A stretch of DNA of 64,000 nucleotides from Eubacteriales bacterium (GCA_045589215.1 JAZNOQ010000085.1:4348-68347), one strand, 5' to 3'. Counted from the stretch's first letter, positions 16,066-55,775 are shown. The notes: generated by a model from the letters alone, not told the origin. Made by a program: numbers and translations.

Positions 16066-17976
16066 TCATTTTCCGTTCTTCGATCGGCGCGACCGACGGA
16101 GAGAGTCCTTTGTGTGGCGTTTCTTTGCCGAGCGACCGGGCAGGGCGCGGACCGAACGGAACGCAAACCGTATGAGGCGTAAGGGGAATATCACAAGCTT
16201 TTCGGGCAGCGCCGAAACGATGCGTGCGACTGTCGTGAGGAGCCCGAGAAGAAGCTTTCCGATCGGAAGGTAAATCAGGGGCTCGAGTGCGAGTTTTGAG
16301 GGCAAGCGGTTGACGTAAAAGCGCAGCCCCGTGCCCTCGTCGCGCTTCATAAGAAGTCTGCGGACGACGAGCAGGTAAACGAGCGTGGCAATCGCGAGCG
16401 AGATGCATACGCCGCGGAGGTTCGTCCATGAAAAATACTCGACGCGATGAGAGAGCGGTTGCCCGCCGACAAAGGAGAGACCGAATGCGGAAATTCTCTC
16501 TGCGAACATGTGCGGCGCGTAGCCGAGAACGAGGATTGGGAGAGTGCCCATCAGAAGCGCGACCCACGAAAGGACCGTGAGGCGTTTTTTGCGTTCCGAG
16601 CCGTCTTTCTTTGCGGGTGAATGCTCGGCGCTCGGGCGTTCAATGAAGATTGCGACAAAGAGCTTTGCTACGTACGCTGCGGTGAGACCGCCCGACAGGA
16701 GAAAGAGCCATTCGACGAGGGTGATGAGCGCGCCGCCGTGTGCGGCATATTCGACGATGCTTTCATGCACGAGCGTTTTCGAGAGGTAGCCGAGCGTTCC
16801 GGGAATACCCGCAAGGCTTGCACCGCCGACAAGGAAAACTGCACCGAGGAGGGGCTTCTGTCTGCCGTAGCCGCGAAGCTCGTTCAGGTGAAGGGTGTGT
16901 GCCGTTGCATAGATTGCACCTGCTGTGAGGAACAGAACGAGCATAGACAGCGAATGATTCAGCATATAAAGAACCGTTCCGTTTGCGGCAAGCGCGTTCC
17001 CATCGCCGAGAAGACAGATCATCGAGATCCCGACCGTAATGAATCCGATCTGCGACATCGACGAGCAGGCAAGGGTGCGCTTCAAATGAACTGAGAAAAG
17101 TGCAAGAGCGGCTCCGACGAGCATGGTGATCGCTCCGAGCGCGAGGAGAAGCTCTCCCCAGGGGCGTTCGCCGGGAAGTACGTTCGCGGTCACGATCAGA
17201 ATTCCGAAAATACCCGTTTTCGTGACAACCCCCGACAAAAGCACACTTGCGGGTGTCGGGGTGACGGGATGGACTCTCGGGAGCCAGCTTGGCGTCGGGA
17301 ACAGTCCTGCCTTTGTGCCGAAGCCGAGAAGGATGCAAATTGCCGCGAGGTAGAGCTCTGTACGGTTCTTTGCAGTCGGGCAGAGTGCGCGGAGCTCGGA
17401 GAAGCTTAGCGTCCCAGCGCAATGATTCAGAAGAAGGATGCCTGCGAGGGCTACCATACTGCCGATCACCGCGATCGTGAGATAGGATTTGCCTGCCTTC
17501 AGTGAGCCGAGCGTTTCCTCCTCTGCGACCCAGGCATAGGACGCGAGAGAGGTCAACTCGAAGAAGATGAATGTCGTGAGCAGATTTGTTGAAAGAAAGA
17601 TGCCGAGGGTCGAACCGAGGGTAAACAGAAAGAAGAAGCAGAAGCGTCCGCTGATACCGTGGCGTTTGAAATACTGTGGCGAGAGGAGTGATGCGCCGAA
17701 CCACATAAAGACGGTGACGAGCGCGTAGATCGCCCGAAGCCCGTCGAAGGACAGGTGGATGCGGAGCATATCTGTGGAGCAGCTTGCTTCGCAACCGGAT
17801 ACAAGCAACCAAAGCGCCGCTAGAAGCTCGATGAGGCAGGTCGCGATCAGTAGGATACAGCGGGCGGACTTGACAGCTTTTTTGTGGACTTTAAGACACT
17901 TTCCCGTAGCATAGGTGACGAATGCCGACAAAAGGGGAAAGAGTACGAGAAGAAGCAGAAGAATGGAAGGGTTCAT
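16066..17976 (-). CDS. proton-conducting membrane transporter, complex I NuoL/MnhA-like antiporter subunit (divergent)
   Basis: 636 aa and highly polytopic. TM5 Glu (FIFFELTSLASY), TM7 Lys (GFGTKAGLFP) and the TPASVLLSGVVTKTG block are present. AAGGAGG RBS lies 16 nt after the upstream stop. Confidence 0.8.
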   Translation of the reverse strand: MNPSILLLLLVLFPLLSAFVTYATGKCLKVHKKAVKSARCILLIATCLIELLAALWLLVSGCEASCSTDMLRIHLSFDGLRAIYALVTVFMWFGASLLSPQYFKRHGISGRFCFFFLFTLGSTLGIFLSTNLLTTFIFFELTSLASYAWVAEEETLGSLKAGKSYLTIAVIGSMVALAGILLLNHCAGTLSFSELRALCPTAKNRTELYLAAICILLGFGTKAGLFPTPSWLPRVHPVTPTPASVLLSGVVTKTGIFGILIVTANVLPGERPWGELLLALGAITMLVGAALALFSVHLKRTLACSSMSQIGFITVGISMICLLGDGNALAANGTVLYMLNHSLSMLVLFLTAGAIYATAHTLHLNELRGYGRQKPLLGAVFLVGGASLAGIPGTLGYLSKTLVHESIVEYAAHGGALITLVEWLFLLSGGLTAAYVAKLFVAIFIERPSAEHSPAKKDGSERKKRLTVLSWVALLMGTLPILVLGYAPHMFAERISAFGLSFVGGQPLSHRVEYFSWTNLRGVCISLAIATLVYLLVVRRLLMKRDEGTGLRFYVNRLPSKLALEPLIYLPIGKLLLGLLTTVARIVSALPEKLVIFPLRLIRFAFRSVRALPGRSAKKRHTKDSLRRSRRSKNGK

Positions 17977-17992
17977 AAGTCGTCTGCCTCCT

Positions 17993-19447
17993 TTACAGTA
18001 TCGTGCCGACGATCAGATCGGCAATCGCGGAGGTCATTCCCGCAGGTAGTCCGAGAAGAACGGTGGACGCCGCGAGAAGCACGGTCGGGAGCACGAGAAG
18101 GAGGGGTTCCTTTTTCGTTTGGGACTCGATAAACGCGGGATTGATTTTGTCCCCGGGATAAAATGCACGCACCGAGACCGACAAGAGCGCGCCTGCCGTA
18201 AGCAGAGCCGACAGGATCAAAACGGCGGGAATGATATACGAAAGGGGAGAAGGGATTCCTTCGAGTGCCGCAGAGGCAAGCGTCCAGGTTGAGAGGAAGC
18301 CGCCCGTCGGGGGCATTCCGATCATAGAAAGCGCGGCAACGGTAAAGGAGAGCGTAGTCACGGGCATTCGTTTTCTGATGCCGCAGAGGGCACTCGTTTC
18401 GGTCTCGCCTGTGAGATAAACGACTGCGCCTGCGAAAAGAAGGAGTGCCGTTTGGGCAGCCGTGTGGGAGGCGATTTGCAGAAACGCGCCCTTAAGCCCG
18501 TCCGCTGTGAAGAGGAAGATCCCAATGAGTGCGTAGGAGACCCGACTGACCGTCAAATAAGCAAGACGCTTTTTAAGGAGCTTTTCATTGTACGCAAGCG
18601 TCGCACCGATCAGGATCGATATGAGCGCGAGGACGATCAGGGCGGTCTGCACCCAGGTTTCCTTGAGAAGGGCAGGACCTGCGATGAAATAAAGGACGCG
18701 AACGATTGCGAGAACACCTACTTTGGTGATGAGTCCCGACAAAAGGGCGCTCGCAGGAGCGGGAGCATTGGGGGAAGCGGATATCAGCCAACCGTGAAGC
18801 GGATAAAGACCGGCCCTCATGCCAAAGCCAAGAACCAAACAAAAGAGCGCCAACAAGGTAAGCGGGAGTGCTTCGAGCCCGACACCGCCGACTGTAAAAG
18901 AGAATGTGGAGGCGATGCCCGCAAGCGCAAAGATACCGAACAGAACGAGGAGCGCACCCGAGACCGAGTAAAACAGATATTTTATCGCACTTCGCTTTGA
19001 CGCGCAGCTTCCGTTGTGAAGAACGAGGGGGATCGAGCAAACGGTCAGTAGCTCACAGAAAACGAACATCGTAACGAGGCTCGTCGACAGGGCTGCGCCG
19101 ATAACTGCCGCTTCGGACAGAAACATACAAATATAAAAGCCGGGCTCGTTTTTCTCGCGTTGCATGGCGACGAAGGAATATAGTATTACGAAAAGCCAGC
19201 CGATCGCAACGAGCGTGCAGAAGAATTTAGCCGTTCCGTCCGAGCGAAAGGCGATCTCGATCTTATCTGAAGCGTGAAAAAGCGTAAGCGCCGTTTCGGG
19301 CAGGAGTACGACCGACGCGAGGAGAGCCGAGACGAGCGATTGCAGGAGGGCCGTAAGAACGAGCAGAAGGGGTCTGTTTGCTTTTCGGAAGATCCCCACG
19401 ACCAAGGCGGCGAGAAGGGGGAAGGGAATAGAGGGAGCAAGTATCAT
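17993..19447 (-). CDS. proton-conducting membrane transporter, NuoN/MnhD-like antiporter subunit (divergent)
   Basis: 484 aa. TM5 Glu (FVFCELLTV), GFGMRAGLYPLHGWL (Arg where Lys is usual) and APASALLSGLITKVG are present. Confidence 0.8.
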   Translation of the reverse strand: MILAPSIPFPLLAALVVGIFRKANRPLLLVLTALLQSLVSALLASVVLLPETALTLFHASDKIEIAFRSDGTAKFFCTLVAIGWLFVILYSFVAMQREKNEPGFYICMFLSEAAVIGAALSTSLVTMFVFCELLTVCSIPLVLHNGSCASKRSAIKYLFYSVSGALLVLFGIFALAGIASTFSFTVGGVGLEALPLTLLALFCLVLGFGMRAGLYPLHGWLISASPNAPAPASALLSGLITKVGVLAIVRVLYFIAGPALLKETWVQTALIVLALISILIGATLAYNEKLLKKRLAYLTVSRVSYALIGIFLFTADGLKGAFLQIASHTAAQTALLLFAGAVVYLTGETETSALCGIRKRMPVTTLSFTVAALSMIGMPPTGGFLSTWTLASAALEGIPSPLSYIIPAVLILSALLTAGALLSVSVRAFYPGDKINPAFIESQTKKEPLLLVLPTVLLAASTVLLGLPAGMTSAIADLIVGTIL

Positions 19448-19563
19448 TGCAGTACCTTTCTTTGCATATCGGCGAACCGAGATGAGCGACCAATGCGTGT
19501 TGCTTTTTTTGGAAAACGCATCGTGACGTTACAGATTTAATGAAAGAAATCGGTTCGAGTTTT

Positions 19564-19592
19564 ATTATACCACACCCATCGTATAATTGCAA
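19564..19592 (-). promoter_or_regulatory. sigma-A promoter for the antiporter-like two-gene operon
   Basis: On the minus strand: TTGCAA, a 17-nt spacer, then TGg-TATAAT, about 115 nt upstream of the start codon at 19447. Confidence 0.6.
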
Positions 19593-20280
19593 GTCCGGCG
19601 GACAAAAAAGCGATAGCGAGAAAGAGAGGAGGACGAAAAATCAACCAAACCGAGGATATATCAACAAAACAGGCCGGAATCATGTGAAGGCAGAACGATG
19701 TGTAGCGGAAACGGAAGTTTGTTTGGCGACAGCAACCGATGCGGAAGATCTTGTATGTGTCATAAAAACAGCCGGATCGGTCATGAAACGAGGGGAAATT
19801 TGCACAAGACGCAAAAGAAGAAATAAATGGAGGAAAAGGCAAAAAAAGGAATTGCTGAATGAAAAAGGTAACATGATCAATGTGTGTCTTTGCGCGAGGG
19901 CAGAAAATTTGCAAAAAAAGAAAAAACTTTCTTTCACGAAGGTGTAGAAAAAACAACTCGATTTTTGTGCAATCTGCACACAGGAGCTTGGCGCACCTCG
20001 AAAAAGCTCCGTTCAGACACAAAAAACAAGCGGTGAAAGTGTGTAACAAGGTCAATTTCTTTTTTGGATGGTCGAAAAATATTTTCAACAAAAAATGGTC
20101 AAAAAGCAAAGAAAAAAGCAGTTCAAAAGGGTAGCTCGGGTAAATGATATTTACTTTTCTCGGGGCGCGCAAAAAGTTTGATTTTGCACTTCTTTTGCGG
20201 CCCGCGTGAAATGTGGAAAACCTGTGTGAAACTTTGTGACACCTATAAGGAAGGAAACCAACGCGAAAGAGGAGAAATGC

Positions 20281-20309
20281 TTGACATTTTGGGCATTGTG
20301 TGGTATGAT
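20281..20309 (+). promoter_or_regulatory. sigma-A promoter of the giant SBP/permease operon
   Basis: TTGACA, a 17-nt spacer, then TGg-TATGAT, leaving a ~195-nt leader. Confidence 0.65.
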
Positions 20310-20369
20310 ATCAACATCAATATTAGGGCAAAATGCGGTCTATGCCGCGTCGACAGCGGCGCTTGAAAT

Positions 20370-20408
20370 CCGGGAGTGTTCCTCTCGGGTTTCATTTTCG
20401 TCTGTTTT
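20370..20408 (+). promoter_or_regulatory. terminator-like hairpin inside the operon leader (candidate attenuator)
   Basis: CCGGGAG-uguuc-CUCUCGG followed by GUUUCAUUUUCGUCUGUUUU. Flanking hairpins are GCCGC-gucgaca-GCGGC (20343-20359) and CCCGAA..UUCGGG (20410-20434). Confidence 0.45.
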
Positions 20409-20504
20409 GCCCGAAAAGCGGCGGTCCGCTTCGGGATGCGCCGAAGGAGCTGCGTGAATTTTCCGCGCGCGACTCCCTGAAAAATCTACTAGGAGGGAAA
20501 ATCC

Positions 20505-23500
20505 ATGAAAAAGACGAAATTACAGCGCTTGATAGCTTTGCTTCTTGCGGCGGTATTTCTGATCTGCGGCGGTACCATAACCGTCGGCGCAACGGATGGA
20601 GGTGGATCGGAGGACGGCTCCTCGGGCAACTCGTCTACCACAACCGTTACGACTGCCGACATTAAGGCACTGCTGAATTCGATGACGTACGACGAGTACG
20701 TTGCGGCTTATTTTGACACGGTTCCCCGTGCAGAGGGAGAGCCTATTGTCATAAACGGCGTCGATTACGACCCCGAGCAGACCAACATAGGGTTTGACGA
20801 CGGCTCGGATGGCGTTTTTGACGACAGCTGTATCTCGGTCCGCGAATACCTTGGCGTTAAAGGGCTTTATACGCCCGGCAACGGCATCGTATCCTGGAAG
20901 ATCGATCAAATAACGAAGAAGACTCGTTATTCGATCAGCATTGAGTACTACCCGATCGAGAATAAGTCTGCTTCCATTGAACGTGTGTTCTACATCAACG
21001 GCTCGGTTCCGTTTAAGGAGGCGCGTTACCTGACCCTTTCAAAGGTTTGGAGAAATGCTTACCCGAACGGCTCGTTTGTCCTTGCAAAGGGTGAGAGCGA
21101 TGCGGATGGAGCGGCATACGTAAGCGCGGCGGCTGAAATCGGGATCAAGGCGAGCTACGACGCCGAGACGAGAACGGTATCATATGAGATGCCCGCATAT
21201 TGGACGCAGGATATTTCGGACCTCGCCAACGAGAAGCAGCTTCGCTTCTTCAAGAACGATATTGACAAAAACGAGATCAGACCCACCATCGAGCAGGTGC
21301 CCGAATGGCGTTCCTACGAGATGAGTGACTCGAACGGCTATTATACCGAGTCCTTTGAGTTCATCGTCGAGCCGAACAAGAACGGTGAGGTGATCCTCTC
21401 GCTCGAGGGCGTGAACGAGCCTATGGTGATCAAGAGCATTACGCTCTTTGCTCACGAGGATAACGTTTCGTACGAGCAATATCTGAAGGATCTCGGCGAC
21501 AAGGCTACCGCTTCGGGTCAGGATAAGATCAAGATCGAGGGCGAGGAGCTGCTTGCGGCTTCCTCCAAGACCATTTACGCGATCAACGATAACTCCTGCG
21601 CGATCAACTCTCCCACCGACACCACCCGTACGGTACTCAACACCATCGGCGGCGAAAAGTGGCAAACGGCAGGTCAGTGGGTGCGCTACGGCTTTGCGGT
21701 GCAGACCGCGGGTATGTACGACATCGCGATCCGTTACCGTCAGAACGTCCTCGACGGTCTGTATACGTCGCGTTCTCTTTCGATCTCTTCCTATTATAAA
21801 GGTGCGAACGGCGAGCTCGTTCGGTACGATAAAGCTACATATCTTGCACAGCACGGAAACACCGCAGGCTTCTATGACGGTGTTCCGTTCGACGAGGCTG
21901 CGAGACTTCAGTTCTCTTACGACCAGGATTGGCAATCGACCTTCCTAACCGCAGATGTTGACGGAGACAAGAACCTGCCGATCTACTTCGAGGATGGCGT
22001 CGTGTATATGATGGAGATCGAGGTCACCATCGGTGAGATGGGCGAGATCGTTCGTGAGGTCCAGGAAACGCTTGATGTTATCAATGACTGCTATCTGAAC
22101 ATTCTCCAGCTGACCGGTACGAACCCTGACGAATACCGCGACTACGGATTCTCGCGTATTATGCCCGATACCATCAACCAGATGGAGATGGCGGCGCAGA
22201 GACTTGCGGGGCCGAACTCCGACGGTGAGGGCGGTATTGTTAAGGCACTTGAGAACATTTCGGGCGAGGCGAGCTCGATGACCGCAACTCTGGAGCGTGT
22301 GGCATGGCTCCTCCACCGTATGACGGATGAGGATAACATCGCATCGAACCTCGGTCAGCTTAAGACCTATATCGGTACGCTCGGTACTTGGCTTGGCGAT
22401 GCAAAGACCCAGCCCCTTCAGCTTGACTACCTCGTGGTTCAGCCCACGAACGGAAAGCTGCCTAAGGCGACTCCGAACTTCTTTAAGACGATGGCTCATG
22501 AGTTCTCGAGCTTCTTCCAGAGCTTCATTCGAAATTACGACCGTATGGGCGCAACCGTTGAAGCTACCGATGCCGCGACCGAGGTATGGCTTGCATATGG
22601 CCGTGACCAGTCTCAGGTCATCCGTAATCTGATCAACAACGATTTTACTCCCAATAAGGAGGAGTTCGGCGATAAGGACGGCAACGAGATCATCGTTGAC
22701 CTGAAACTTGTCGCAGGCGGCACGCTCCTTCCGTCTATCCTTTCGGGTGCGGGTCCTGATGTTTATATCGGACTTGGCGAGGATAACGTAATCAACTACG
22801 CGATCCGCGGTGCACTCATTGCGATCGAAAATATGGAAGGCTTCAATGAAATGTGCCTCCAGGAATATGAGGACGAAAACGGTAATATTGTCGACAACTC
22901 GAAGAACGCACAGTTCAATGAGGCGGCAATGATCGTTATGGGCATTGAGGACGCTAAGGGGGATATGCATTACTACGGTCTCCCCGAGACGCAGGGCTTC
23001 AGTATGATGTTCGTGCGTGAGGATATCCTTGCTGACCTTGATATCGATATTCCCCGTACGTGGGATGACATCTACGCCGCGATCCCCACGCTTCAGGCGA
23101 ACAACATGCAGATCGGTGTACAGAACGACTACAAGATCTTCCTGTACCAGATGGGCGGCGAGCTCTTTGCGGATAACGGTATGAGAATCAATCTTGATTC
23201 CAACGTTGCGCTGACCTCGTTCAATATGATGTGTAATCTCTTTACACAGTACGGCTTCCCCTATAAGTACGACTTTGCAAACCGTTTCAGAACCGGTGAG
23301 ATGCCGATCGGCTTTGCAAGCTACACGGGTACCTACAACCACCTGAAGGTCTTCGCGACTGAGATCGAGGGCTTGTGGGGCTTCTACCCGCTTCCCGGTA
23401 TGATCAAGACCGACGAGAAGGGAAATGAGATCTATGACGAGAACGGTGATCCCGTGATCAACAACGTTGCGGTCTCTGCTTGCTCTGCGATCGTTATGAT

Positions 23501-24149
23501 CGTCGGATGCGACAACGAGTACAACGCATGGCAGTTTATGAGATGGCACGTAGGTGCTGATTGTCAGGCGACATACTCGGAGGAGATGTGTGCGATCATC
23601 GGTCCTTCCGCAAAGCACTCTACCGCAAACCTCCAGGCACTTGCAGATATGCCTTGGACCTCCGAGGAGCTTCTGCAGCTCGGAACGCAGTTCAACAATC
23701 TCGCATCTATCCCGAACTACCCCGGTTCCTACATCATCGGCCGTTACACCAACTTCGCATTCCTCTCGGCGTATAATAGCTCGGCAGACCCTACCGAGGA
23801 GCTGCTCTCCTATATCACCACGATCAACAAGGAGATCACGCGTAAGCGTGAGGAGTTTGAGCTTGAAACGCTCGAGATCGGTCAGACCCTCGCCGAAAAG
23901 AGGATCGGAGAGGCAGAGGCTGCTCTTAAAGCACTTCGCGAATCCGACTCTTGGAGCGCAAGCTACGATGCTCTTTATGAAAGATCGCTCGGAAGCTACG
24001 GTCTCCTCCATCAGACACAAGAAGACTACGCCGCACTCTTTGCTCTTGCTTCCGACTTTAAGACCGCAAACGCGACTCTGTTCGAGGAAGTCGTTGAGTG
24101 CATCAATGAGGCCGCTACGGCACTGAAGACTTACGAGGCTTATAAATAA
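20505..24149 (+). CDS. giant extracellular solute-binding protein: signal peptide + two CBM/beta-sandwich-like segments + helical module + family-1 (CUT1) SBP domain + helical C-terminal tail
   Basis: AGGAGGG RBS and a signal peptide (LIALLLAAVFLICGG..VGA|TD). A CBM6/35-like stretch is present (KIEGEELL...GQWVRYGFAVQTAGMYDIAIRYRQ). SBP-like blocks are EVWLAYGRDQ, LLPSILSGAGPDVYIG and WGFYPLPG. Confidence 0.75.
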   Translation: MKKTKLQRLIALLLAAVFLICGGTITVGATDGGGSEDGSSGNSSTTTVTTADIKALLNSMTYDEYVAAYFDTVPRAEGEPIVINGVDYDPEQTNIGFDDGSDGVFDDSCISVREYLGVKGLYTPGNGIVSWKIDQITKKTRYSISIEYYPIENKSASIERVFYINGSVPFKEARYLTLSKVWRNAYPNGSFVLAKGESDADGAAYVSAAAEIGIKASYDAETRTVSYEMPAYWTQDISDLANEKQLRFFKNDIDKNEIRPTIEQVPEWRSYEMSDSNGYYTESFEFIVEPNKNGEVILSLEGVNEPMVIKSITLFAHEDNVSYEQYLKDLGDKATASGQDKIKIEGEELLAASSKTIYAINDNSCAINSPTDTTRTVLNTIGGEKWQTAGQWVRYGFAVQTAGMYDIAIRYRQNVLDGLYTSRSLSISSYYKGANGELVRYDKATYLAQHGNTAGFYDGVPFDEAARLQFSYDQDWQSTFLTADVDGDKNLPIYFEDGVVYMMEIEVTIGEMGEIVREVQETLDVINDCYLNILQLTGTNPDEYRDYGFSRIMPDTINQMEMAAQRLAGPNSDGEGGIVKALENISGEASSMTATLERVAWLLHRMTDEDNIASNLGQLKTYIGTLGTWLGDAKTQPLQLDYLVVQPTNGKLPKATPNFFKTMAHEFSSFFQSFIRNYDRMGATVEATDAATEVWLAYGRDQSQVIRNLINNDFTPNKEEFGDKDGNEIIVDLKLVAGGTLLPSILSGAGPDVYIGLGEDNVINYAIRGALIAIENMEGFNEMCLQEYEDENGNIVDNSKNAQFNEAAMIVMGIEDAKGDMHYYGLPETQGFSMMFVREDILADLDIDIPRTWDDIYAAIPTLQANNMQIGVQNDYKIFLYQMGGELFADNGMRINLDSNVALTSFNMMCNLFTQYGFPYKYDFANRFRTGEMPIGFASYTGTYNHLKVFATEIEGLWGFYPLPGMIKTDEKGNEIYDENGDPVINNVAVSACSAIVMIVGCDNEYNAWQFMRWHVGADCQATYSEEMCAIIGPSAKHSTANLQALADMPWTSEELLQLGTQFNNLASIPNYPGSYIIGRYTNFAFLSAYNSSADPTEELLSYITTINKEITRKREEFELETLEIGQTLAEKRIGEAEAALKALRESDSWSASYDALYERSLGSYGLLHQTQEDYAALFALASDFKTANATLFEEVVECINEAATALKTYEAYK

Positions 24150-24200
24150 TTCGCCGGATGCAATAATAAACCTACATTATTATATAATACGGCGCAGATC

Positions 24201-24239
24201 CGTGATCGGGATTTTGCAGAAAGGCAAATTCCCGACACG
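24201..24239 (+). other. intercistronic stem-loop between the SBP gene and the first permease gene
   Basis: CGTGATCGGGATTT / AAATTCCCGACACG forms an imperfect ~13-bp stem with no U-tract. The placement is typical of SBP-mRNA stabilisers in ABC operons. Confidence 0.4.
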
Positions 24240-24290
24240 GTGAGCCCCGCAAATCTTCGCTCGAAATTTTAGTTAAGGAGATAAGAGCAT

Positions 24291-25238
24291 ATGCCTACAA
24301 AAGTGAAACAGAAACAAGCTGTTTCCAGAAAGGACATGACGAAAGCGCAATGGATCTGGAAGGAAATGAAGCGCAATAAGGTCGGCTACGCAATGATCGC
24401 CCCCTTTATGCTCGTTTTCACGCTTTTCACCGTTGTGCCGGTCGCATTGTCCATTTATTACAGCTTTACAGACTTTAACCTGCTCGAGACAGCCCAGTGG
24501 CGAGGAATTGAAAACTACATTCGTCTGTTCCTTGACGATGACATCTTCCTCATATGTGTGAAGAACACGTTTATGTTCGCGGTGGTCGTAGGCCCCGCGT
24601 CCTACCTGATTTCCTTCCTCGTCGCATGGTTCATCAACGAGCTTTCTCCGATCGTTCGTTCGATCGTTACCCTGATTTTCTACGCTCCGTCCATTGCGGG
24701 TCAGGTTTACCTGATTTGGGGTACTCTTTTCTCGAGTGACTCCTACGGATGGGTCAATGCAACACTATTGAATATGGGTATGATCAGTGAACCGATCGCC
24801 TTCTTCGAGGATGAGGACTACGTTATGCCGCTTTGTATCGTGGTCTCTCTTTGGACGTCACTCGGTACTGCGTTCCTGTCGTTTATCGCAGGTCTGCAGG
24901 GTATTGATCACTCGCTGTACGAGGCGGGTGCCGTCGACGGTGTCAAGAACCGTTGGCAGGAGCTGTGGTACATTACGCTTCCTACGATGAGACCGCAGCT
25001 GATGTTCGGTGCGATCATGGCGATCACGAACTCCTTCGGATTTGGCGGTATCGTTACCGCGCTGTGCGGATTCCCGTCGGTTAACTACTGTGCGCATACG
25101 ATCATGCACCATCTTGAGGACTATGGCGGACAACGCTTTGAGATCGGTTATTCTTCCACCATTGCTGTCGTCTTGTTCGTTATCATGATCGGTGCGAACA
25201 TGCTCGTCAAGAAAGTGCTTTCTAAGGTGGGTAAGTAA
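24291..25238 (+). CDS. carbohydrate ABC transporter permease (MalF-like), pair 1
   Basis: Six TM helices and an EAA loop (YEAGAVDGVKNRWQELWYITLPTMRP). Good RBS. Confidence 0.9.
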   Translation: MPTKVKQKQAVSRKDMTKAQWIWKEMKRNKVGYAMIAPFMLVFTLFTVVPVALSIYYSFTDFNLLETAQWRGIENYIRLFLDDDIFLICVKNTFMFAVVVGPASYLISFLVAWFINELSPIVRSIVTLIFYAPSIAGQVYLIWGTLFSSDSYGWVNATLLNMGMISEPIAFFEDEDYVMPLCIVVSLWTSLGTAFLSFIAGLQGIDHSLYEAGAVDGVKNRWQELWYITLPTMRPQLMFGAIMAITNSFGFGGIVTALCGFPSVNYCAHTIMHHLEDYGGQRFEIGYSSTIAVVLFVIMIGANMLVKKVLSKVGK

Positions 25239-25239
25239 T

Positions 25240-26112
25240 ATGGCAAAGTTAAGAACAAGAAGACACAAGGTCGTCCTTGCCCGCTCACGAGGCGGTGATG
25301 CGGCGATATCGGTTATCCTTGTAATTTTGGGCGCGTTCATGTTCCTCCCGATGTATTACGTCGTGATACAGTCCTTTAAGCCCCTTGATGAGCTTTGGAT
25401 GTTCCCGCCCCGATTCTACGTAATCAATATGACCCCTAAGAACTACACGGATCTCTTTACATTGATGAGCACCTCGTGGGTTCCGTTCTCGCGTTACATT
25501 TTCAATACTGTTCTGACCTCGGTAGCAGGTACGTTCGGTAACCTGTTCTCGGCATCTCTTGCGGCATACGCAATTTCCAAGATCAAGTTCCCGGGACGAA
25601 AGTTTACGTTTAAGCTCGTCCGTACCTCGCTGATGTTCCACTCGACCGTTACCGGTATCACGTCCTTTATGATTATGTCGAGTCTTAAGCTCGTCGATAC
25701 ATATTGGGCGCTGATCCTTCCGGCACTCGGTTATAAGCTCGGCCTTTACCTGATGAAGCAGTTTATGGACACCAACGTTCCCAACACGGTCCTTGAAAGT
25801 GCCCGTCTCGACGGCTCGGGAGAATTGCGGACCTTCTGGGTCATTGCAATGCCTATGGTTAAGCCCGCATGGCTGACACTGATCATCTACTGCTTCGAGG
25901 ATCTGTGGAATAGAGGCTCTTCGACCTATATTCATTCGGAGCAGCTCAAATCGTTTAACTACGCAATCGGTCAGATCATGGCAGGCGGTATCAAACGTGC
26001 AGGTGCGCATGCCGCTTCCACGGTCATTATGATGCTCGTCCCGATCGCGGTATTCGTTATTACCCAGTCGAACGTCATCGAAACGATGGGCTCCTCGGGC
26101 ATGAAGGATTAA
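25240..26112 (+). CDS. carbohydrate ABC transporter permease (MalG-like), pair 1
   Basis: The ATG lies 1 nt after the upstream stop. EAA loop is ESARLDGSGELRTFWVIAMPMVKPA. Confidence 0.9.
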   Translation: MAKLRTRRHKVVLARSRGGDAAISVILVILGAFMFLPMYYVVIQSFKPLDELWMFPPRFYVINMTPKNYTDLFTLMSTSWVPFSRYIFNTVLTSVAGTFGNLFSASLAAYAISKIKFPGRKFTFKLVRTSLMFHSTVTGITSFMIMSSLKLVDTYWALILPALGYKLGLYLMKQFMDTNVPNTVLESARLDGSGELRTFWVIAMPMVKPAWLTLIIYCFEDLWNRGSSTYIHSEQLKSFNYAIGQIMAGGIKRAGAHAASTVIMMLVPIAVFVITQSNVIETMGSSGMKD

Positions 26113-26130
26113 AAGGAGGCAAGATTTTAT

Positions 26131-28266
26131 ATGAAAAAGAAAATAATTGCACTCCTGTTTGCGCTTGTGTTTGCCTTGAGTGCACTTGCTCTTCCTGCGA
26201 GCGCTGCATCGCCGTATCAGACCTATACGTATTCGATCAACGGTACTCCGTTGCATTCTCCTGATGCGTATACTCCGATCAAGGTAATGGATTCCGACAC
26301 CATGGGCCTCGAGCTCGTGATGAAAAATCCGACCGACCTTGTCGTTGACGACGATCTGAATATCTATATCGCGGATAGAGATAACAACAGAATCCTTGTA
26401 AACGACCGCTACGGAAAGAATAAGTTCATCATCGAGACCTTTATCAACGAAGATGGTGTCCCCGATGAGCTTACGCATCCGCAGGGACTCTTCGTCACCG
26501 AAGATAAGATCTACGTTTGCGATACCGAAGCAGCTCGAATCGTAACCTTCGACCTAGAAGGTAATTTCCTTTCGGTTATTCCTGCCCCTGAAAGCGCACT
26601 GTTTGACGAGGGCTCGATCTATTCGCCGATCGCGATCGCGGTCGATAAGTACGACAGACTCTTTGTCGTTTCGCGTGACACCTATCAGGGTATCATCGTT
26701 ATGACGAGTGACGGTATGTTTACCGGATTTATCGGTGCACAGGCGGTCTCGCTTACCTTTTGGGAGATGATGATCCGTCGATTCCAAACCGATGAGCAGA
26801 GAGCACAGAGTGTTCTCAACGTCTCGGTTTCCTACAATAACATCGCCGTTACCGAAGAGGGCTTCGTTTACGCGACCACCTCTTACATCGACGAGGCTAA
26901 AGTACAGTCCTTCATTAAGAGTAAGTCGAGTAGCGGTAAATATTCGCCGGTTAAGCTCCTGAATGCAAAGGGCGACGAGATCATGAAGCGTAACGGCTTC
27001 TGGCCGCCTGCCGGTGAGGTCGATATGACCAGAGCGTCCTCTGCCGATACAATTAGCGGTCCTTCGACCGTTATAGACGTCGCGGTCGGACCTCAGAAGA
27101 CCTGGTCGATCGTCGACTCCAAGCGAAACAAAATCTTTACCTATGACTTTAACGGTAACCTTCTTTATGCCTTTGGCGATACCGGTCAGCAGATCGGTAG
27201 CCTTATGAGCGTCACGTCGATCGTTTATCAGGGAGACACGATGCTCGTGCTCGACAAATCGAACTGTACCATTACGGTATATGAGCGAACCGAGTACGGC
27301 GATATTCTGATCGATGCGATCACAAACCAGAACGCACAGCTCTATGATAGTGCTGTTGCCGACTGGACGGAGATCCTGAAGCGTAACTCCAACTTTGACG
27401 CCGCTTACGTCGGCATCGGTAATGCGCTGTACCGTGACGGTGCTTTTGAGGAATCTTTGGCATATTACAGAGCTGCTTACGATACCACGAACTATTCGAA
27501 GGCGTATCAGGAGATCCGTAAGGAATGGATCTCCGATTGGATCATCCTTCTTCCGATCGTTGTCGTTGTGGCAGTAGTCCTGTGGGTACTGCTGATGCGT
27601 TACGCCAAGAAGGTCAACGGAAGAGCGGCAGTTACCGGAGGAAAGCGCACCTTCAAGGAGGAGCTTCTGTATTGCTTCCACACGATGTTCCATCCGTTCG
27701 ACGGTTATTGGGATCTGAAGCACGAAAAGCGCGGCTCGATTCGGGCATCCCTCGTGTTTATCGGTATCACGATCCTTGCGTTCTATTATCAGAATATCGG
27801 TACGGGTTATATCAGCAATCCCAGAGAGAACTATTCGTCCTTCGTTGCACAGATCACGGGCGTTCTGCTCCCGCTGTTCCTGTTTGTCATCGGCAACTGG
27901 TGTCTTACCACGCTGTTTGAGGGCGAGGGCAGCATGAAGGATATCTTCATCGCAACCGCCTACTCTCTTGTACCGCTTCCCTTTTTCATCGTTCTTTCTA
28001 CGATGTTCTCAAACGTGGCACTCAAGGCAGAGCTTGATATGGTCAATATGCTCGTTACCGTTGCGTTTATCTGGGTCGGTCTCCTGCTCTTCTTCGGCGT
28101 CATGACCGTCCACGACTATTCGCTCGGAAAGAACGTCCTGACAATCATCGGAACACTTGCAGCGATGATCTTCATTATGTTTATCGCACTTCTGTTCACA
28201 ACGCTTCTCAGTAAGGTTATCGGCCTTATCTCGAATATCATCACCGAAATCAGCTATCGCTTATAA
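26131..28266 (+). CDS. secreted NHL-repeat beta-propeller / TPR-like linker / C-terminal Yip1-domain polytopic membrane protein
   Basis: Signal peptide (ALSALALPASA|AS). Repeated NHL-like blades are present (LNIYIADRDNNRILV, KIYVCDTEAARIVTFD, RLFVVSRDTYQGIIVM, KIFTYDFNGNLLYAFG). A TPR-like helix pair (GNALYRDGAFEESLAYYRAAYD) is followed by about 6 TM helices resembling Yip1. Confidence 0.65.
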   Translation: MKKKIIALLFALVFALSALALPASAASPYQTYTYSINGTPLHSPDAYTPIKVMDSDTMGLELVMKNPTDLVVDDDLNIYIADRDNNRILVNDRYGKNKFIIETFINEDGVPDELTHPQGLFVTEDKIYVCDTEAARIVTFDLEGNFLSVIPAPESALFDEGSIYSPIAIAVDKYDRLFVVSRDTYQGIIVMTSDGMFTGFIGAQAVSLTFWEMMIRRFQTDEQRAQSVLNVSVSYNNIAVTEEGFVYATTSYIDEAKVQSFIKSKSSSGKYSPVKLLNAKGDEIMKRNGFWPPAGEVDMTRASSADTISGPSTVIDVAVGPQKTWSIVDSKRNKIFTYDFNGNLLYAFGDTGQQIGSLMSVTSIVYQGDTMLVLDKSNCTITVYERTEYGDILIDAITNQNAQLYDSAVADWTEILKRNSNFDAAYVGIGNALYRDGAFEESLAYYRAAYDTTNYSKAYQEIRKEWISDWIILLPIVVVVAVVLWVLLMRYAKKVNGRAAVTGGKRTFKEELLYCFHTMFHPFDGYWDLKHEKRGSIRASLVFIGITILAFYYQNIGTGYISNPRENYSSFVAQITGVLLPLFLFVIGNWCLTTLFEGEGSMKDIFIATAYSLVPLPFFIVLSTMFSNVALKAELDMVNMLVTVAFIWVGLLLFFGVMTVHDYSLGKNVLTIIGTLAAMIFIMFIALLFTTLLSKVIGLISNIITEISYRL

Positions 28267-28289
28267 CAAACCGGAGGATATAGAAAATT

Positions 28290-31200
28290 ATGAAATTCAG
28301 AAGAATAATTTCAATGTTCCTGGCCGTATTGTTTGTGATCGGTACGTGCTCGGTGACGATCGGTGCAGCCGATACGTCCACGGGAACATCGAATTCGTCC
28401 TCCTCCGGTACTGTTGCGGAGAAGGTAACGTATAGCTATTACACCAACAGTAGTCCAAACCCTGAGGATGCTACCGTCCAGTATTTCGTTGATAAGGATC
28501 TCGAATGGACGGAGGCGAAGGTGTTTGACACTCCGAACGAAAAGCTCCAAACGATGGATCTTCGTCTTCAGCAGAACGGATATCAGCTGTATGTAGACGA
28601 ATACTCGGGTGAGGTGGCTTGCAGAAACCTTACCACCGAGGAGATCCTCTTCACGAACCCTTATAATATCGGTGCTTCTACGGCAAAGGGCAATCAGCTG
28701 TACGAGCTAATGTCGCAGATCCTCGTTGAGTATACCGATAAATCGACCGGCGTTACGACGACCTTCACCAGCTTTAAGGAAACCTCGGTCAGAGGTCAGC
28801 TCAAGGTGAAGAACATCAAGAACGGTCTCCGTGTTGAATATACCGTCGGTCGTGAGGAAGCGAAGATGCTCGTTCCGAGACTGATCGAAAAGACCCGCTT
28901 TGAAACCAAGATCCAGTCCGTGCTCGAAGAGGCACTTGTTGCCGAGGGTGAAGTCGGTCGTCTTAAGATCAATAAGGTCGTAAAGTGGTATAAGCTTTAC
29001 GATATCTCGCAGGCGACCAACGACATTGAATACGACTCGATGATCGCGATTGTTCCGATCGCAAGAGAGATGCCGGTATACAGTATCGACGAGTCTGTAA
29101 CCTCGGTTCAGCTTGCCGCGATCGAAATGCTCATCAAGACCTACGCATCCTCGTACACCTACGAGGATCTGGATTACGACCACGAGCTCACCGAATACGA
29201 GGGCGAGGAACAGAACCCGCCGCTCTTTAAGATGGCGCTTGAGTACATCATTTCGGACGAGGGACTTACCGTTACGCTTCCCGCAAACGGTCTCCGTTTC
29301 GACGAGTCTCGTTACACGCTTGAAAACATCTCCGTCCTGCCCTATATGGGTGCAGGTATGTCGCCCAACGAAGGTTATACCTTCTTCCCGGACGGCTCCG
29401 GTGCGCTCTTCGACTTTGAGGAGCTGCGTCAGCTGTCCTCGACCAGCATCAGCGGCCAGGTTTACGGCGTTGACTACGCATATCAGACCATTGCGGCGAC
29501 CCACCAGGAGACCATTCGCTATCCTGTATTCGGCGTCGTAGAGGTTCAGCAGCTCGAGAAGCTTGCTCCTGACCTTTCGATCCGGGAATATGAGCAGGAT
29601 CGCGGTTTCGTTGCGATCATTACTGAGGGTGACTCGATGGCAAAGCTTACCTCCGTACACGGCGGTAAGACGACGCACGAATATCACTCGGTCAAAATGA
29701 CCTACTACCCGCGTCCGAAGGACTCCTACAACCTGAAGGATGCGCTTTCGTCGACTTCTAACGGTAGCGGCGCTATGTGGGAAGTCGTTTCCTCGAGAAA
29801 GTACACCGGCAACTATACCGTGAAGTACGTAATGCTGACCGATACCGACGTCGCAGAGCAGATACAGCACGATATGGGTGAGGGAGAGACCTTTGATTAC
29901 TACGAATGCTCCTATATGGGTATGGCATCGGCGTATCGCGATTATCTCCTCGATACCGGCGTTCTGACTCCCCTTACGGAAGAGGATATCAGCGACGATA
30001 TCCCGCTTTACATCAATACCTTCGGTGCGATCGAGACGACTCAGAAGATCATGTCGATCCCCGTTGATGTAACCGTTGCTTTGACCTCCTTCAAGGACGT
30101 TGCGGAAATGTACGCACAGCTCGAGAAGGTTGGCATTACCAATGTAAACTTCAAGCTTACGGGTTACTCAAACGGCGGTATGTACGCGACTGTTCCGTAT
30201 TACCTCGATTGGGAAAAGGCCGTCGGCGGTGACAACGGCTTTGAGGCACTCCTCGACGACGCAAACAAGAAGGGCTATAAGGTCTTCCCGGACTTTGACT
30301 TCGTTTACGTTTCCGAAACCGGAATGATCGACGGTCTCGCACTTCGTAAACACGTCGTTAAGAGTATCGACAACCGTTACACCAGCCGTCGTGAATACTC
30401 TGCGACCAAGCAGGCGTTTGTCAGCTACTTCGAACTTTGTATCTCGCCCGCTTACTACGATCACTTCTACGAGAAGCTCACGACGAACTATCTGAAGCAC
30501 TTCGAAGATACCGATTATAACACCTCGATCTCGATCGGAACGCTCGGCTCCGAGCTGAACTCGGACTTCGATGAAGACGATCCGTTTAACCGTGAGGACT
30601 CGAAGCAGTCTACGATCAAGGCGTTTAAGTATTTCGACGAGAATTACGATTACGTAATGACCAATGGCGGTAACGCTTATACTTGGAAGTACGTAGATTA
30701 CATTCTCGATGTGCCGCTTGATTCGAGCCGCTTCATCAGAGCAAGCGCGTCGGTTCCCTTTATGGGTATCGTTCTCCACGGATATGTTCAGTTCTCCGGA
30801 ACGCCTATCAATATGGAGGGTAATCTCAATTACGCATTCCTGAAGGCGATCGAGAACGGTGCTTCCGTAAACTTCGTTCTTTCTTATCAGAATACGACTA
30901 CGCTGAAGAATGATATGCGTCTCAGCAAGTATTATTCGATTCGTTACGATATCTGGTTCGATGACGTTGTAACGATCTACAATAACCTGAATTCGCTCCT
31001 TTCTGACGTACAGCTTGAGACCATCGTTGATCACGAATTTATCGACGCACTTCGTGTTGCCGATCTTGACGAGGCAAAGAATGATCTCGACGCGGCGATC
31101 CTCGATTCGATCGAGGCAGAGCGTGAGGCTCTTGATAAGCAGAAGCTCGAAGAAATACAGACCATTCTGAATGCACGTCAGCTGATCCGTATCAACAGCG

Positions 31201-33017
31201 CGGCTGTTACCGCAGAGCTTGAAAAGCTGATGGGATACAAGGAATCGCTTATTTTGAAGCTCGGCTATGTCGAGAACGAGGATGGTGTTTCCTACACCAG
31301 CGGTGAGCTTGCACTTGCGATCAATAACTTTAACGCCGCAGTTCAGAATTATATCAAGGTTTACAACGGCGGTGACTGTGGTGCCAATGAGACCACGGGA
31401 ACCTCCGCAATTCTGGGTGACGCAGCCCGTGCGATGAACAATGCGGCGGCAGAGCTGCAGAAGTTCTACGATCAGGCGCAGAACGGTTCGGTCAACTATA
31501 TTGCCAACCAGGCGTATACCGCTGAGCTTGCAGCACGCGAGGCATATGAGAATGCAATCGCGGCATACGAAATCCTCGCTGCTACATCTGCAGTTTCGGA
31601 TTACATCAGAGAGCTCGCATGGGGACTTGTCGAGGATACCGCTGAGGCGGTAGCGACCATCGGCTCGATCGCGCCCAGCGTTTACGAAATGGCACAGGAC
31701 GCATACGATTATGCGATCAGCGGTGCCGCAACTCTGACCGATGCGAACGGTGATGCGATCTGCGAGATCAGCACCTATCAGTTCTACCTCTACGCACTTT
31801 GCGGTTACCTCGGTGTACAGCCGACCGTAAAGATCGATCCGAAGAACGTGCTTCGTTGCTATGAGATCGGCCTCATTAAGAGCGATCTTACGGCAAAGGC
31901 AGCGCTTGATCAGATCTGCAATATCTTGAAGATTGAGGACGCAACGGTTGCTCCTGATTATGCGGCTCTCTTTGCAGGCTATCTGAGCAAGTCCGGTCAG
32001 GTCGGATTTGAAACCAGATACAACACCTTCGCCGAAAGATGGCAGGAATATCAGGAGATCTACGAGCGATATAAGAACAAGAAGGCGACCTCGATTGATC
32101 TCGCGAATGCTCTGACTCCTTTGATGAATGCTGCAATTTACCTCAACACCGAATTCGGCTATTTCGTCGATCTGTTTGAGGCTTCGCCCAAGTCTGCGAA
32201 CAGCATCATTACCTTCTACGAGAATTCGCTTGATCTTCAGGCTCAGGCGAATGCCTTCTCGGCTGCATTTGCGGCTTGCTATGCTGCGGAAAATCCGTCC
32301 TCGGCACAGCTGAAGACGCTTGCCGATGCGGCGAAGATGCTCTCTGCATCCTTCGATACGATTTCCGACGATTATGCGATCGTTCCGAGCGATTCCGCAA
32401 CCGGTATCAACTCGTATGCTAAGAATGCCGAAAAGCATATGACGGTTCTTAAGAACGCTATGGAGACTGCGAAGTCGGTGCTTGCAACGCTTCAGAGGAC
32501 CCCGATCGCCGAGGGTGAAGAGGGCTATGCAGAGCGTCAGGCAGCGATCGCTTTGGCCCTTGAATACGTTCAGTATACCGAACGCAATTACAACGAAGTT
32601 GAAGCGGCTGCTAACGAGGTTGTTGATCTTGCGGAGAAGGCTTACGAAGAAGCTTCGAAGATCGATGAGGTTGTGAAGTACTGCAAGGCGGTCGAAGAGG
32701 TGACCTTTGCTGCAGAGGAGGATGAACGCCTTCTCGACGTGGCTCCCAAGTTCATCGAGCTTCTCCATCCGTACGATTATATCGCTCCGGAGGTAGAGGA
32801 GGAGATCCTTGAGGATGAGGAAGAGGTATATAACAAGTACAGCTCGGATAAGAACAGTGTCGTGCTTGTAACCTATTCGAACGGAACCAGATTCCTGTTG
32901 AATTATTGCAACTATGCAATCGTGGTGGAAATCGACGGAGTTTCTTACCGCGTGGAATCTCAGAGCTATCAAAAGATTCCCGTGGTGGAAAGTGAGGTAG
33001 AAGACAATGACCAGTGA
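28290..33017 (+). CDS. 1575-aa secreted DUF5696-like protein (putative glycan-processing TIM-barrel core) with ~600-aa Ala-rich all-helical C-terminal extension
   Basis: Signal peptide (FLAVLFVIGTCSVTIGA|AD). The core has FPDGSGALFDF, TGYSNGGMY..WEKAVGG, FPDFDFVYV, IGTLGSELNSDF and VPFMGIVLHGY. Residues ~900-1500 are Ala/Glu/Leu-rich helices, followed by a small terminal beta domain. The DUF5696 label is from memory. Confidence 0.55.
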   Translation: MKFRRIISMFLAVLFVIGTCSVTIGAADTSTGTSNSSSSGTVAEKVTYSYYTNSSPNPEDATVQYFVDKDLEWTEAKVFDTPNEKLQTMDLRLQQNGYQLYVDEYSGEVACRNLTTEEILFTNPYNIGASTAKGNQLYELMSQILVEYTDKSTGVTTTFTSFKETSVRGQLKVKNIKNGLRVEYTVGREEAKMLVPRLIEKTRFETKIQSVLEEALVAEGEVGRLKINKVVKWYKLYDISQATNDIEYDSMIAIVPIAREMPVYSIDESVTSVQLAAIEMLIKTYASSYTYEDLDYDHELTEYEGEEQNPPLFKMALEYIISDEGLTVTLPANGLRFDESRYTLENISVLPYMGAGMSPNEGYTFFPDGSGALFDFEELRQLSSTSISGQVYGVDYAYQTIAATHQETIRYPVFGVVEVQQLEKLAPDLSIREYEQDRGFVAIITEGDSMAKLTSVHGGKTTHEYHSVKMTYYPRPKDSYNLKDALSSTSNGSGAMWEVVSSRKYTGNYTVKYVMLTDTDVAEQIQHDMGEGETFDYYECSYMGMASAYRDYLLDTGVLTPLTEEDISDDIPLYINTFGAIETTQKIMSIPVDVTVALTSFKDVAEMYAQLEKVGITNVNFKLTGYSNGGMYATVPYYLDWEKAVGGDNGFEALLDDANKKGYKVFPDFDFVYVSETGMIDGLALRKHVVKSIDNRYTSRREYSATKQAFVSYFELCISPAYYDHFYEKLTTNYLKHFEDTDYNTSISIGTLGSELNSDFDEDDPFNREDSKQSTIKAFKYFDENYDYVMTNGGNAYTWKYVDYILDVPLDSSRFIRASASVPFMGIVLHGYVQFSGTPINMEGNLNYAFLKAIENGASVNFVLSYQNTTTLKNDMRLSKYYSIRYDIWFDDVVTIYNNLNSLLSDVQLETIVDHEFIDALRVADLDEAKNDLDAAILDSIEAEREALDKQKLEEIQTILNARQLIRINSAAVTAELEKLMGYKESLILKLGYVENEDGVSYTSGELALAINNFNAAVQNYIKVYNGGDCGANETTGTSAILGDAARAMNNAAAELQKFYDQAQNGSVNYIANQAYTAELAAREAYENAIAAYEILAATSAVSDYIRELAWGLVEDTAEAVATIGSIAPSVYEMAQDAYDYAISGAATLTDANGDAICEISTYQFYLYALCGYLGVQPTVKIDPKNVLRCYEIGLIKSDLTAKAALDQICNILKIEDATVAPDYAALFAGYLSKSGQVGFETRYNTFAERWQEYQEIYERYKNKKATSIDLANALTPLMNAAIYLNTEFGYFVDLFEASPKSANSIITFYENSLDLQAQANAFSAAFAACYAAENPSSAQLKTLADAAKMLSASFDTISDDYAIVPSDSATGINSYAKNAEKHMTVLKNAMETAKSVLATLQRTPIAEGEEGYAERQAAIALALEYVQYTERNYNEVEAAANEVVDLAEKAYEEASKIDEVVKYCKAVEEVTFAAEEDERLLDVAPKFIELLHPYDYIAPEVEEEILEDEEEVYNKYSSDKNSVVLVTYSNGTRFLLNYCNYAIVVEIDGVSYRVESQSYQKIPVVESEVEDNDQ

Positions 33018-33969: not shown

Positions 33970-33987
33970 GGAAAGGAGGAAGAAGTA

Positions 33988-35141: not shown

Positions 35142-35175
35142 GGGGGCTATCTCAACGAGGTAGCCCCCCTTTTTC
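35142..35175 (+). terminator. intrinsic terminator ending the seven-gene operon
   Basis: GGGGGCTAT-ctcaacgag-GTAGCCCCCC followed by TTTTT. Confidence 0.85.
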
Positions 35176-35176
35176 C

Positions 35177-35230
35177 AAAAACAAAAGAGCCATCGACGAC
35201 CGGCTTGCACGCCGTATCCGATGGCTCTCT
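35177..35230 (-). terminator. intrinsic terminator of the GDPD gene
   Basis: On the minus strand, the stem AGAGCCATCG...CGATGGCTCT is followed by TTTTGTTTTT. Confidence 0.7.
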
Positions 35231-35250
35231 TTGGTTTTGTTACGGTTATT

Positions 35251-35973: not shown

Positions 35974-36024
35974 GGCGTGATTCCTCCGAGCGGTTGCAGA
36001 TATGATTTGCGGAAAACGCAGTGA

Positions 36025-53701: not shown

Positions 53702-53770
53702 TCTTAGAACCAAAAAGGGGGCGAGTCATTTGATTGCCTCCTTCTCGAAAATCATAAAGGGAGATCTGTT

Positions 53771-55771: not shown

Positions 55772-55775
55772 AAAA

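Follow-up and report, generated by a model that had tools for sequence, protein, structure and literature searches.

Why should the solute-binding protein (SBP) of a bacterial importer be 1214 residues long, and how would such a protein stay at the cell if it carries no lipid anchor? These questions are raised by the open reading frame (ORF) at 20505-24149 (+) of a 64,000-nucleotide stretch of DNA from Eubacteriales bacterium (GCA_045589215.1 JAZNOQ010000085.1:4348-68347), the whole of which is referred to here as the window. SBPs of the CUT1 class are 370–440 residues long, single-domain and, in Gram-positive bacteria, usually lipoproteins, whereas the protein encoded here (hereafter the long SBP) has about 660 additional N-terminal residues, a C-terminal tail of about 93 residues, no lipobox and a very divergent sequence. 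An earlier, sequence-only reading of the window had described it as an SBP-type protein with a long N-terminal extension, and the ORF, the Pfam matches and the domain layout in an AlphaFold2 model bore this out. The long SBP is, as judged from its sequence and predicted structure, an extracellular SBP of the CUT1/MalE-like class, and it probably acts as the receptor of a CUT1-type ATP-binding cassette (ABC) importer, capturing glycans through two domains that resemble carbohydrate-binding modules (CBMs).

Analysis of the protein with Pfam showed matches at residues 731–1031 to SBP_bac_1 (44.4 bits, cut-off 26) and SBP_bac_8 (43.9 bits, cut-off 27), which were the only families matched. Residues 30–690 and the last 104 residues matched no Pfam family even at E ≤ 10, and NCBIfam recognised nothing in the protein. 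Searches against PDB sequences with phmmer and with a profile returned marginal SBP matches only (profile E ~3e-3), plus spurious designed coiled coils. The mature protein (residues 30–1214) was modelled with AlphaFold2 from 67 homologues, with a mean predicted local distance difference test score (pLDDT) of 83 and a predicted TM-score (pTM) of 0.77; domain boundaries are given throughout in the numbering of the full-length, 1214-residue protein. Comparison of the whole model with the PDB by Foldseek returned about 900 SBPs, the best matches being the CUT1 oligosaccharide binders 5ysf, 9xf5 and 3k01 (GacH) and MalE, with E-values of ~1e-13, target TM-scores of 0.71–0.78 and about 450 aligned columns. 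The modelled solute-binding fold has two alpha/beta lobes with a hinge, superposes on solved SBPs and, by Pfam, AlphaFold2 and Foldseek, spans residues 692 to ~1117 (22578-23855, +). The segment EVWLAYGRDQ, which had been taken to mark an SBP-like part starting near residue 650, begins at residue 693, so that the boundary had to be moved accordingly. The fold is also the best-conserved part of the protein, with a top-residue frequency of 0.84 at residues 800–950. In its two lobes, its Pfam families and its adjacent permeases with EAA loops, the long SBP resembles characterised CUT1 SBPs, including the beta-1,2-glucooligosaccharide-binding protein of Listeria (5ysf), a cycloisomaltooligosaccharide-binding protein (9xf5), GacH (3k01) and MalE.

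Ahead of this fold the model places a succession of smaller domains. The mature chain would start with a Ser/Thr/Gly-rich disordered linker (residues 30–49) followed by two short helices (residues 50–69; together 20592-20711, +), on which an S-Y-x-x-Y motif is invariant throughout the long-SBP superfamily. Two beta-sandwich domains come next, delimited by AlphaFold2, Foldseek and alignment: domain 1, CBM35-like, at residues ~79–320 (20739-21464, +), with a subfamily-specific insertion of about 55 residues at ~190–245, and domain 2, CBM6/35-like, at residues ~342–508 (21528-22028, +), within which lies the motif GQWVRYGFAVQTAGMYDIAIRYRQ (residues 390–413). They are followed by a helical bundle of about 125 residues (residues 512–634; 22038-22406, +), delimited by AlphaFold2 and alignment, and by a modelled connecting strand and helix (residues 638–675; 22416-22529, +) that run through a low-confidence linker into the SBP fold.

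The resemblance of the two sandwiches to CBMs was assessed both from structure and from relatives. A separate model of residues 69–511 (pLDDT 88, pTM 0.87) was matched by Foldseek to a tandem CBM51 (2ygm, E 5.9e-5), to CBM6 (2cdp) and to CBM35 (2w1w, 2vzp, 2w47; probability 1.00), with target TM-scores of 0.51–0.62; further matches were to CBM-like domains in Vip3 and Cry toxins. In the model, the beta-jelly-roll fold of the sandwiches superposes on solved CBM6/35 structures. The N-terminal beta-sandwich segments had been called CBM-like before any structure was predicted, a view with which these matches agree; a CBM6/35-like signature had been seen in one sandwich only, and while that sandwich is indeed CBM6/35-like, the restriction did not hold, since both are CBM35-like. 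A 981-residue relative (P0498) passes the Pfam CBM_35 threshold at its residues 116–172 (E 1.8e-10, 41.6 bits, cut-off 28). It aligns with the window protein by BLASTP at 35% identity over residues 120–1121, and the CBM_35 match therefore falls on window residues 120–176, in domain 1. Sub-threshold matches to CBM_35 or Golvesin_C were found in other relatives at the positions of either sandwich, and in a random sample of 50 shorter relatives, at E ≤ 0.01, CBM_35 was matched by 10, CBM_6 by two and Golvesin_C by 20. Taken with the model, the sequence matches support placing both sandwiches in the CBM35/CBM6-like fold class, as homologues of the sequences that match CBM_35. Domain 1 of the window protein also cross-aligns with domain 2 of P0498 (BLASTP E 0.002), and hhalign detected an (N/D)G-VPF-EA-x-L motif common to both sandwiches (E 3.7e-4, over 20 columns only), which is weak evidence that the two arose by tandem duplication. 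The CBM35 and CBM6 modules of glycoside hydrolases have the same beta-jelly-roll and the same type of motif, G-x-W-x-x-Y-x-[FV]...G-x-Y-x-[IL]-x-[IV]-R-Y. They differ in being carried by enzymes, whereas here the modules sit on a transport receptor, contain large insertions and, in the window sequence, fall below Pfam detection. On sequence and model together, we lean moderately towards the sandwiches actually binding carbohydrate.

The long SBP is the first gene of a seven-gene operon (20505-35106, +), followed in order by two permeases, a membrane protein with NHL/TPR and Yip1 parts, a DUF5696 protein and two further permeases, all on the same strand. That the gene belongs to such a conserved system had escaped the sequence-only reading. 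The first permease (24291-25238, +) is of the MalF/UgpA type and the second (25192-26112, +, with the true start probably at the ATG at 25240) of the MalG/UgpE type; the third (33007-33969, +) is of the MalF type and the fourth (33988-35106, +) of the MalG type with an insertion. Because EAA loops are present in all four, they form two complete MalF/MalG-like pairs. The membrane protein (26131-28266, +; 711 residues) consists of a signal peptide, an extracellular NHL beta-propeller, TPR, one transmembrane (TM) helix and a multi-TM Yip1 domain. The DUF5696 protein (28290-33017, +; 1575 residues) is secreted and has DUF5696 at residues 292–918, with many invariant acidic residues, and then an Ala-rich helical region of about 560 residues; the length of this region varies widely, whole orthologues ranging from 936 to 1951 residues. 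DUF5696 had no relative in the PDB by sequence or profile, the helical region giving coiled-coil noise only, and no second Pfam family was matched in the protein at E ≤ 10. Its homologues are all named 'hypothetical', and a literature search found no papers on DUF5696.

A scan of one genome per species confirmed at least 587 relatives of the long SBP, 80 of which were used for locus comparisons. Nearly all of these 80 are metagenome-assembled genomes (MAGs) labelled Clostridia, Eubacteriales or Oscillospiraceae, with one Bulleidia sp., and they come mainly from ruminant gut, besides Hadza human-gut and other faecal samples. Gene order was identical in 80 of the 80 loci as far as the contigs extend, the flanking genes not being conserved, and the permeases were 66–80% identical (mostly 72–80%). 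The same order was found in relatives whose N-terminal part is only about 35% identical (loci L081–L084, including proteins P0277, P0274 and P0292), and again in Paenibacillus sp. BIHB 4019 (L085; CP016808.1, 6,989,470-7,012,385) and Neobacillus bataviensis LMG 21833 (L086; AJLS01000137.1). The NHL/TPR and Yip1 parts are encoded by one gene in Clostridia (26131-28266 in the window) and by two adjacent genes in Paenibacillus and Neobacillus (14778-16842 in L085; 14814-16908 in L086); since they are fused in the former and split but adjacent in the latter, they probably work together.

The protein family itself proved large. A word-indexed search gave 548 homologues, of which the best 120 are Clostridia MAG proteins of 1088–1214 residues (query coverage 91–100%, identity 52–100%) named only 'extracellular solute-binding protein'. 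With the N-terminal 661 residues as the query, exhaustive searching yielded 1518 clusters at 50% identity, most of them 930–1100 residues long. When the search was seeded with P0277, a relative of 958 residues, it reached proteins of cultured Paenibacillus lautus, P. humicus, P. algorifonticola and Paenibacillus sp. BIHB 4019, as well as of Gracilibacillus marinus and Neobacillus bataviensis. The shorter relatives, those of Paenibacillus and Neobacillus included, keep the core; the window subfamily additionally has the tail and inserted segments within the SBP and each sandwich.

How such a receptor might work can be proposed from these parts. On the cell surface, the CBM-like modules would hold a glycan, whether polymeric or a large oligosaccharide, beside the binding cleft; an oligosaccharide would enter the SBP cleft and be passed on to the permeases, with energy supplied by a shared MsmX-type ATPase whose gene lies elsewhere. 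As obligatory partners, the DUF5696 protein and the beta-propeller-Yip1 protein would take part in substrate processing or serve as an assembly scaffold. The SBP would stay membrane-bound without lipidation, through either its conserved N-terminal hydrophobic helix or its contacts with membrane partners. The module's neighbours in the Bacilli and in L081 include LacI/GntR regulators, GH30, GH2 and GH123 genes, a BNR sialidase-like gene and a GDSL esterase. Capture of a polymer at the transporter is a plausible inference that fits the neighbourhoods of carbohydrate-active enzymes (CAZymes) in the Bacilli. Paenibacillus, Neobacillus and L081 also have a second SBP gene, of the conventional kind, beside the module. 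As a separate observation, in a human-gut Clostridiales relative a protein of 390–417 residues, with a C-terminal hydrophobic segment and a weak CD1107-like match, is encoded between the conventional and the long SBP (8776-9948 in L081; 8695-9948 in L082).

Several observations weigh against a glycan-capturing importer receptor. The Foldseek matches to CBMs, though consistent, have weak E-values (1e-3 to 1e-5) at 6–12% identity; the window protein itself matches neither CBM_35 nor CBM_6 in Pfam (residues 30–690, E ≤ 10), nor any CBM family in NCBIfam; and beta-sandwiches of this class can also mediate protein-protein contacts. The structural neighbours of the SBP fold found with Foldseek also include a dinucleotide-binding SBP, 7c19. 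A single SBP gene for two permease pairs goes beyond a simple importer model, and no ATPase is encoded in or near the operon, the only ABC_tran ORF among the scanned ORFs of the window (45201-46802) being ABC-F-like. CUT1 operons often lack an ATPase gene, shared MsmX-type ATPases being usual. Finally, in the clade of the window the operon lies amid housekeeping genes (Suf, NifS/NifU, a ribosomal operon and Mrp), and CAZymes are not nearby.

The absence of a lipid anchor is the most distinct departure from ordinary Gram-positive SBPs and bears on how the receptor is held at the cell. A strong AGGAGG ribosome-binding site (AGGAGGG) lies 5' of the ATG, and as this Shine-Dalgarno sequence and this ATG are kept in 44 related loci, neither the start codon nor the N-terminal hydrophobic segment is an artefact. 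The predicted signal peptide (residues 1–29; 20505-20591, +) comprises the n-region MKKTKLQR, the h-region LIALLLAAVFLIC, a Gly-Gly and the c-region TITVGA, with cleavage expected between this Ala and the following Thr. The lipobox pattern tested at the end of the h-region was [LVI][ASTVI][GAS]C. The sequence F-L-I-C fails this rule (PROSITE PS51257), having Ile at position −1 where Ala, Gly or Ser is needed. Across 66 aligned relatives the Cys column holds Gly in 38 and Cys in 24, and the V-x-A site that follows it is conserved. Of 119 close homologues, 64 have a Cys within the first 45 residues and 55 have none, and only five fit PS51257. Because the lipobox fails, Gly mostly replaces Cys and the V-x-A site is kept, ordinary lipidation of the long SBP is very unlikely. 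The sequence-only reading had thus been right to deny a canonical lipobox at F-L-I-C/G-G and to regard V-G-A/T-D as a plausible type-I cleavage site.

If the protein is not lipidated, its N-terminal hydrophobic segment may be left uncleaved, or be specifically recognised, and serve as a membrane anchor packed against Yip1 or permease helices, with neither a lipid nor a docking module being needed. The first 22 residues of the SBP are as conserved as its folded domains (top-residue frequency 0.69 vs. 0.67), and Ala11 and Ala15 are invariant in all 66 relatives. The N-terminus of the DUF5696 protein is similarly over-conserved (0.53 vs. 0.42), whereas the signal peptide of the NHL-Yip1 protein behaves normally in the same loci (0.50 vs. 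0.69). Moreover, the N-terminal hydrophobic segments of the SBP (20505-20570) and of DUF5696 (28290-28360) resemble each other, this being the sole similarity found when the two profiles were aligned with hhalign, and the segment of the SBP, with a Kyte-Doolittle value of 2.6 across 19 residues, has sufficient hydrophobicity to form a TM helix. In the wider superfamily the N-termini vary: about 10% are true lipoboxes, some are plain TM anchors without A-x-A and most look like substrates of signal peptidase I. Staying near the membrane therefore seems to be required, with means that differ across the superfamily, and since distant relatives show plain TM anchors or true lipoboxes, tethering would be the ancestral requirement. 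On the other hand, a short h-region of about 13 residues followed by Gly-Gly and a conserved V-x-A is the textbook arrangement for a type-I signal peptide that is cleaved off, and the Paenibacillus versions resemble ordinary cleavable signal peptides. We regard an uncleaved or recognised N-terminal anchor as a real possibility, if not the favoured one.

A different answer would be that the beta-sandwich and helical modules are not glycan binders at all, but assembly scaffolds that fix the SBP to the DUF5696 protein, the NHL-Yip1 protein or both, in which case the extension would serve to build a complex. Such a role would suit a protein that lacks a lipid anchor and is always accompanied by two other large extracytoplasmic proteins. 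It would also suit the high pTM of the full-length model, in which the tail is confidently placed despite its low sequence conservation. That tail, specific to the subfamily, comprises about 93 residues (1122–1214; with the stop codon 23868-24149, +; AlphaFold2 and alignment), rather than the roughly 110 given earlier, and ends in Y-E-A-Y-K; AlphaFold2 predicts four further helices after the SBP fold, at residues 1129–1213. The preceding helix with ITRKREEF (residues 1111–1118) belongs to the core common to the whole superfamily and not to the tail. The C-terminal YEAYK is kept in about 60% of close relatives. However, most of the superfamily has no such tail, ending directly after the ...INKEITRKRxEFGL helix, and nevertheless has the same partners. 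The length of the tail shows no correlation with that of the helical extension of DUF5696 (rho 0.09, p 0.57), hhalign of the SBP and DUF5696 profiles found no common module beyond the N-terminal signal segment, and relatives carry CBM_35 and CBM_6 sequence signals. The helical bundle at 512–634 is conserved superfamily-wide, with an invariant TGxxPDxYRDY loop, and a generic coiled coil was ruled out for it, given a conserved core domain with invariant residues. The earlier suggestion that the helical modules are docking elements thus found no evidence in its favour, and the missing tails and the lack of covariation count against it; we consider docking by these modules doubtful, and the wider scaffold explanation unlikely as well.

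Rather less probable, in our judgement, is a core envelope function, for instance the salvage of wall or capsule fragments from the same cell; the CBM-like modules would then bind this endogenous polymer and so also keep the protein at the surface. The fixed chromosomal context of the operon amid housekeeping genes, seen in the window clade and likewise in several distant clostridial relatives, would be in line with this, and the fact that the SBP cleft region and the permeases are very strongly conserved over hundreds of species points to a single shared ligand. The upstream neighbours in related loci are housekeeping genes and are uninformative on substrate. In the Bacilli and L081, however, the module lies in variable CAZyme clusters typical of the use of foreign glycans. 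An ordinary lipoprotein, lipidated at Cys21 with the lipobox deviation merely tolerated, is highly improbable in view of the Ile at −1 and of the relatives' residue counts given above, even though a Cys does stand at the end of the h-region, a Cys is present in the N-terminal 45 residues of 64 of the 119 close relatives and true lipoboxes occur in a minority of distant ones.

Returning to the glycan-capturing receptor, parts of the system have counterparts elsewhere. In the Sus-like systems of Bacteroidota, surface glycan-binding proteins (SusD, SusE, SusF and SGBPs) serve TonB-dependent transport across the outer membrane. The analogy is functional, in that a glycan is captured at the surface beside the transporter and the operon encodes a putative processing protein; the architecture is unrelated, there is no homology, and the present system is an ABC importer in monoderm bacteria. 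The ABC transporter YknWXYZ of Bacillus subtilis includes, as a fourth component, a membrane protein of the Yip1 family (YknW). In both cases the gene of a membrane protein with a Yip1 domain goes together with those of an ABC transporter, and the products presumably assemble, but YknYZ is of the exporter type and works with a membrane-fusion protein, whereas the present Yip1 domain occurs with type-I importer permeases and is joined to an extracellular NHL propeller or lies next to it. Tethering of SBPs without a lipid is known from the SBP-permease fusions OpuA and GlnPQ and from the N-terminally TM-anchored SBPs of archaea and some Firmicutes. The likeness lies in an SBP kept at the membrane without a lipid, as with the plain TM anchors of some distant superfamily members; the window protein differs from OpuA and GlnPQ in being unfused to a permease and in having a signal peptide that looks cleavable. 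A literature search gave nothing relevant on CBM-SBP fusions or on Yip1 proteins beside importers. The SBP fold and CBM35 are thus known, and their fusion, the absent lipid anchor and the fixed seven-gene module are undescribed in the papers found. More speculatively, the seven genes might encode a single surface machine of monoderm bacteria for glycan capture, processing and import, in which the propeller-Yip1 protein would act as a scaffold holding the SBP and the DUF5696 protein over the two permease pairs; this we propose only tentatively. The holding contact could then be made by the conserved, mutually similar N-terminal helices of the SBP and the DUF5696 protein.

The transcription unit appears to be bounded by signals on both sides, as far as sequence motifs can tell. 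A promoter-like site with a near-consensus extended −10 (TTGACA, 17 nt, TG-n-TATGAT; 20281-20309, +) agrees with 11 of 12 consensus positions, being a consensus match only, and a strong intrinsic-terminator-like hairpin of 12 pairs, eight of them G-C, with a T-run (35142-35168, +) appears to end the operon. Between the promoter and the ATG (20281-20504) stretches a 5' leader of about 195 nt, which contains a second terminator-like hairpin, also bearing a T-run (20364-20394, +); this hairpin could be an attenuator or the target of an antiterminator. A search of the leader against Rfam matched no families. Two ORFs beside the operon, at 19537-20172 (−) and 35221-36024 (+) (211 and 267 residues, respectively), were rejected as genes on account of their odd composition and lack of a family match; the latter, moreover, overlaps a real GDPD (glycerophosphodiester phosphodiesterase) gene on the opposite strand. 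This stand-alone GDPD gene (35251-35973, −) lies just past the operon terminator. A 541-residue protein encoded at 11356-12981 combines a CN_hydrolase (nitrilase-superfamily) with a GDPD domain. Directly upstream of the operon, on the opposite strand (16066-19447, −), two Proton_antipo_M proteins of 636 and 484 residues are encoded, resembling subunits of an Mrp antiporter, hydrogenase-4 or NuoL/M. An ORF of 772 residues at 37581-39899 (−) had no Pfam match at E ≤ 0.001. Farther downstream, a DUF6259 protein of 666 residues (53771-55771) has in its vicinity (50701-58756) two AraC-type regulators, a GFO/IDH/MocA oxidoreductase and a xylose-isomerase-like TIM-barrel protein; by its gene content, this region looks like a separate sugar-related cluster.

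In the standard model of sugar uptake by Gram-positive gut bacteria, ABC importers are served by lipoprotein SBPs. The present system puts putative glycan-binding modules on the receptor itself and adds two large partners, the DUF5696 and NHL-Yip1 proteins, together with a second permease pair. It is widespread and strongly conserved, as the species-level relatives and N-terminal clusters counted above attest. As cultured strains of Paenibacillus and Neobacillus carry the module, direct testing is possible. Solving the system would assign a function to DUF5696 and a role to a bacterial Yip1 protein beside an importer, would show by what means an SBP lacking a lipid anchor is kept at the cell, and could reveal how many uncultured Clostridia of the ruminant and human gut acquire carbohydrates. 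If the seven genes do encode a single machine, it would be an ABC-based counterpart of the Sus paradigm of Bacteroidota and a new, lipid-independent means of retaining an SBP.

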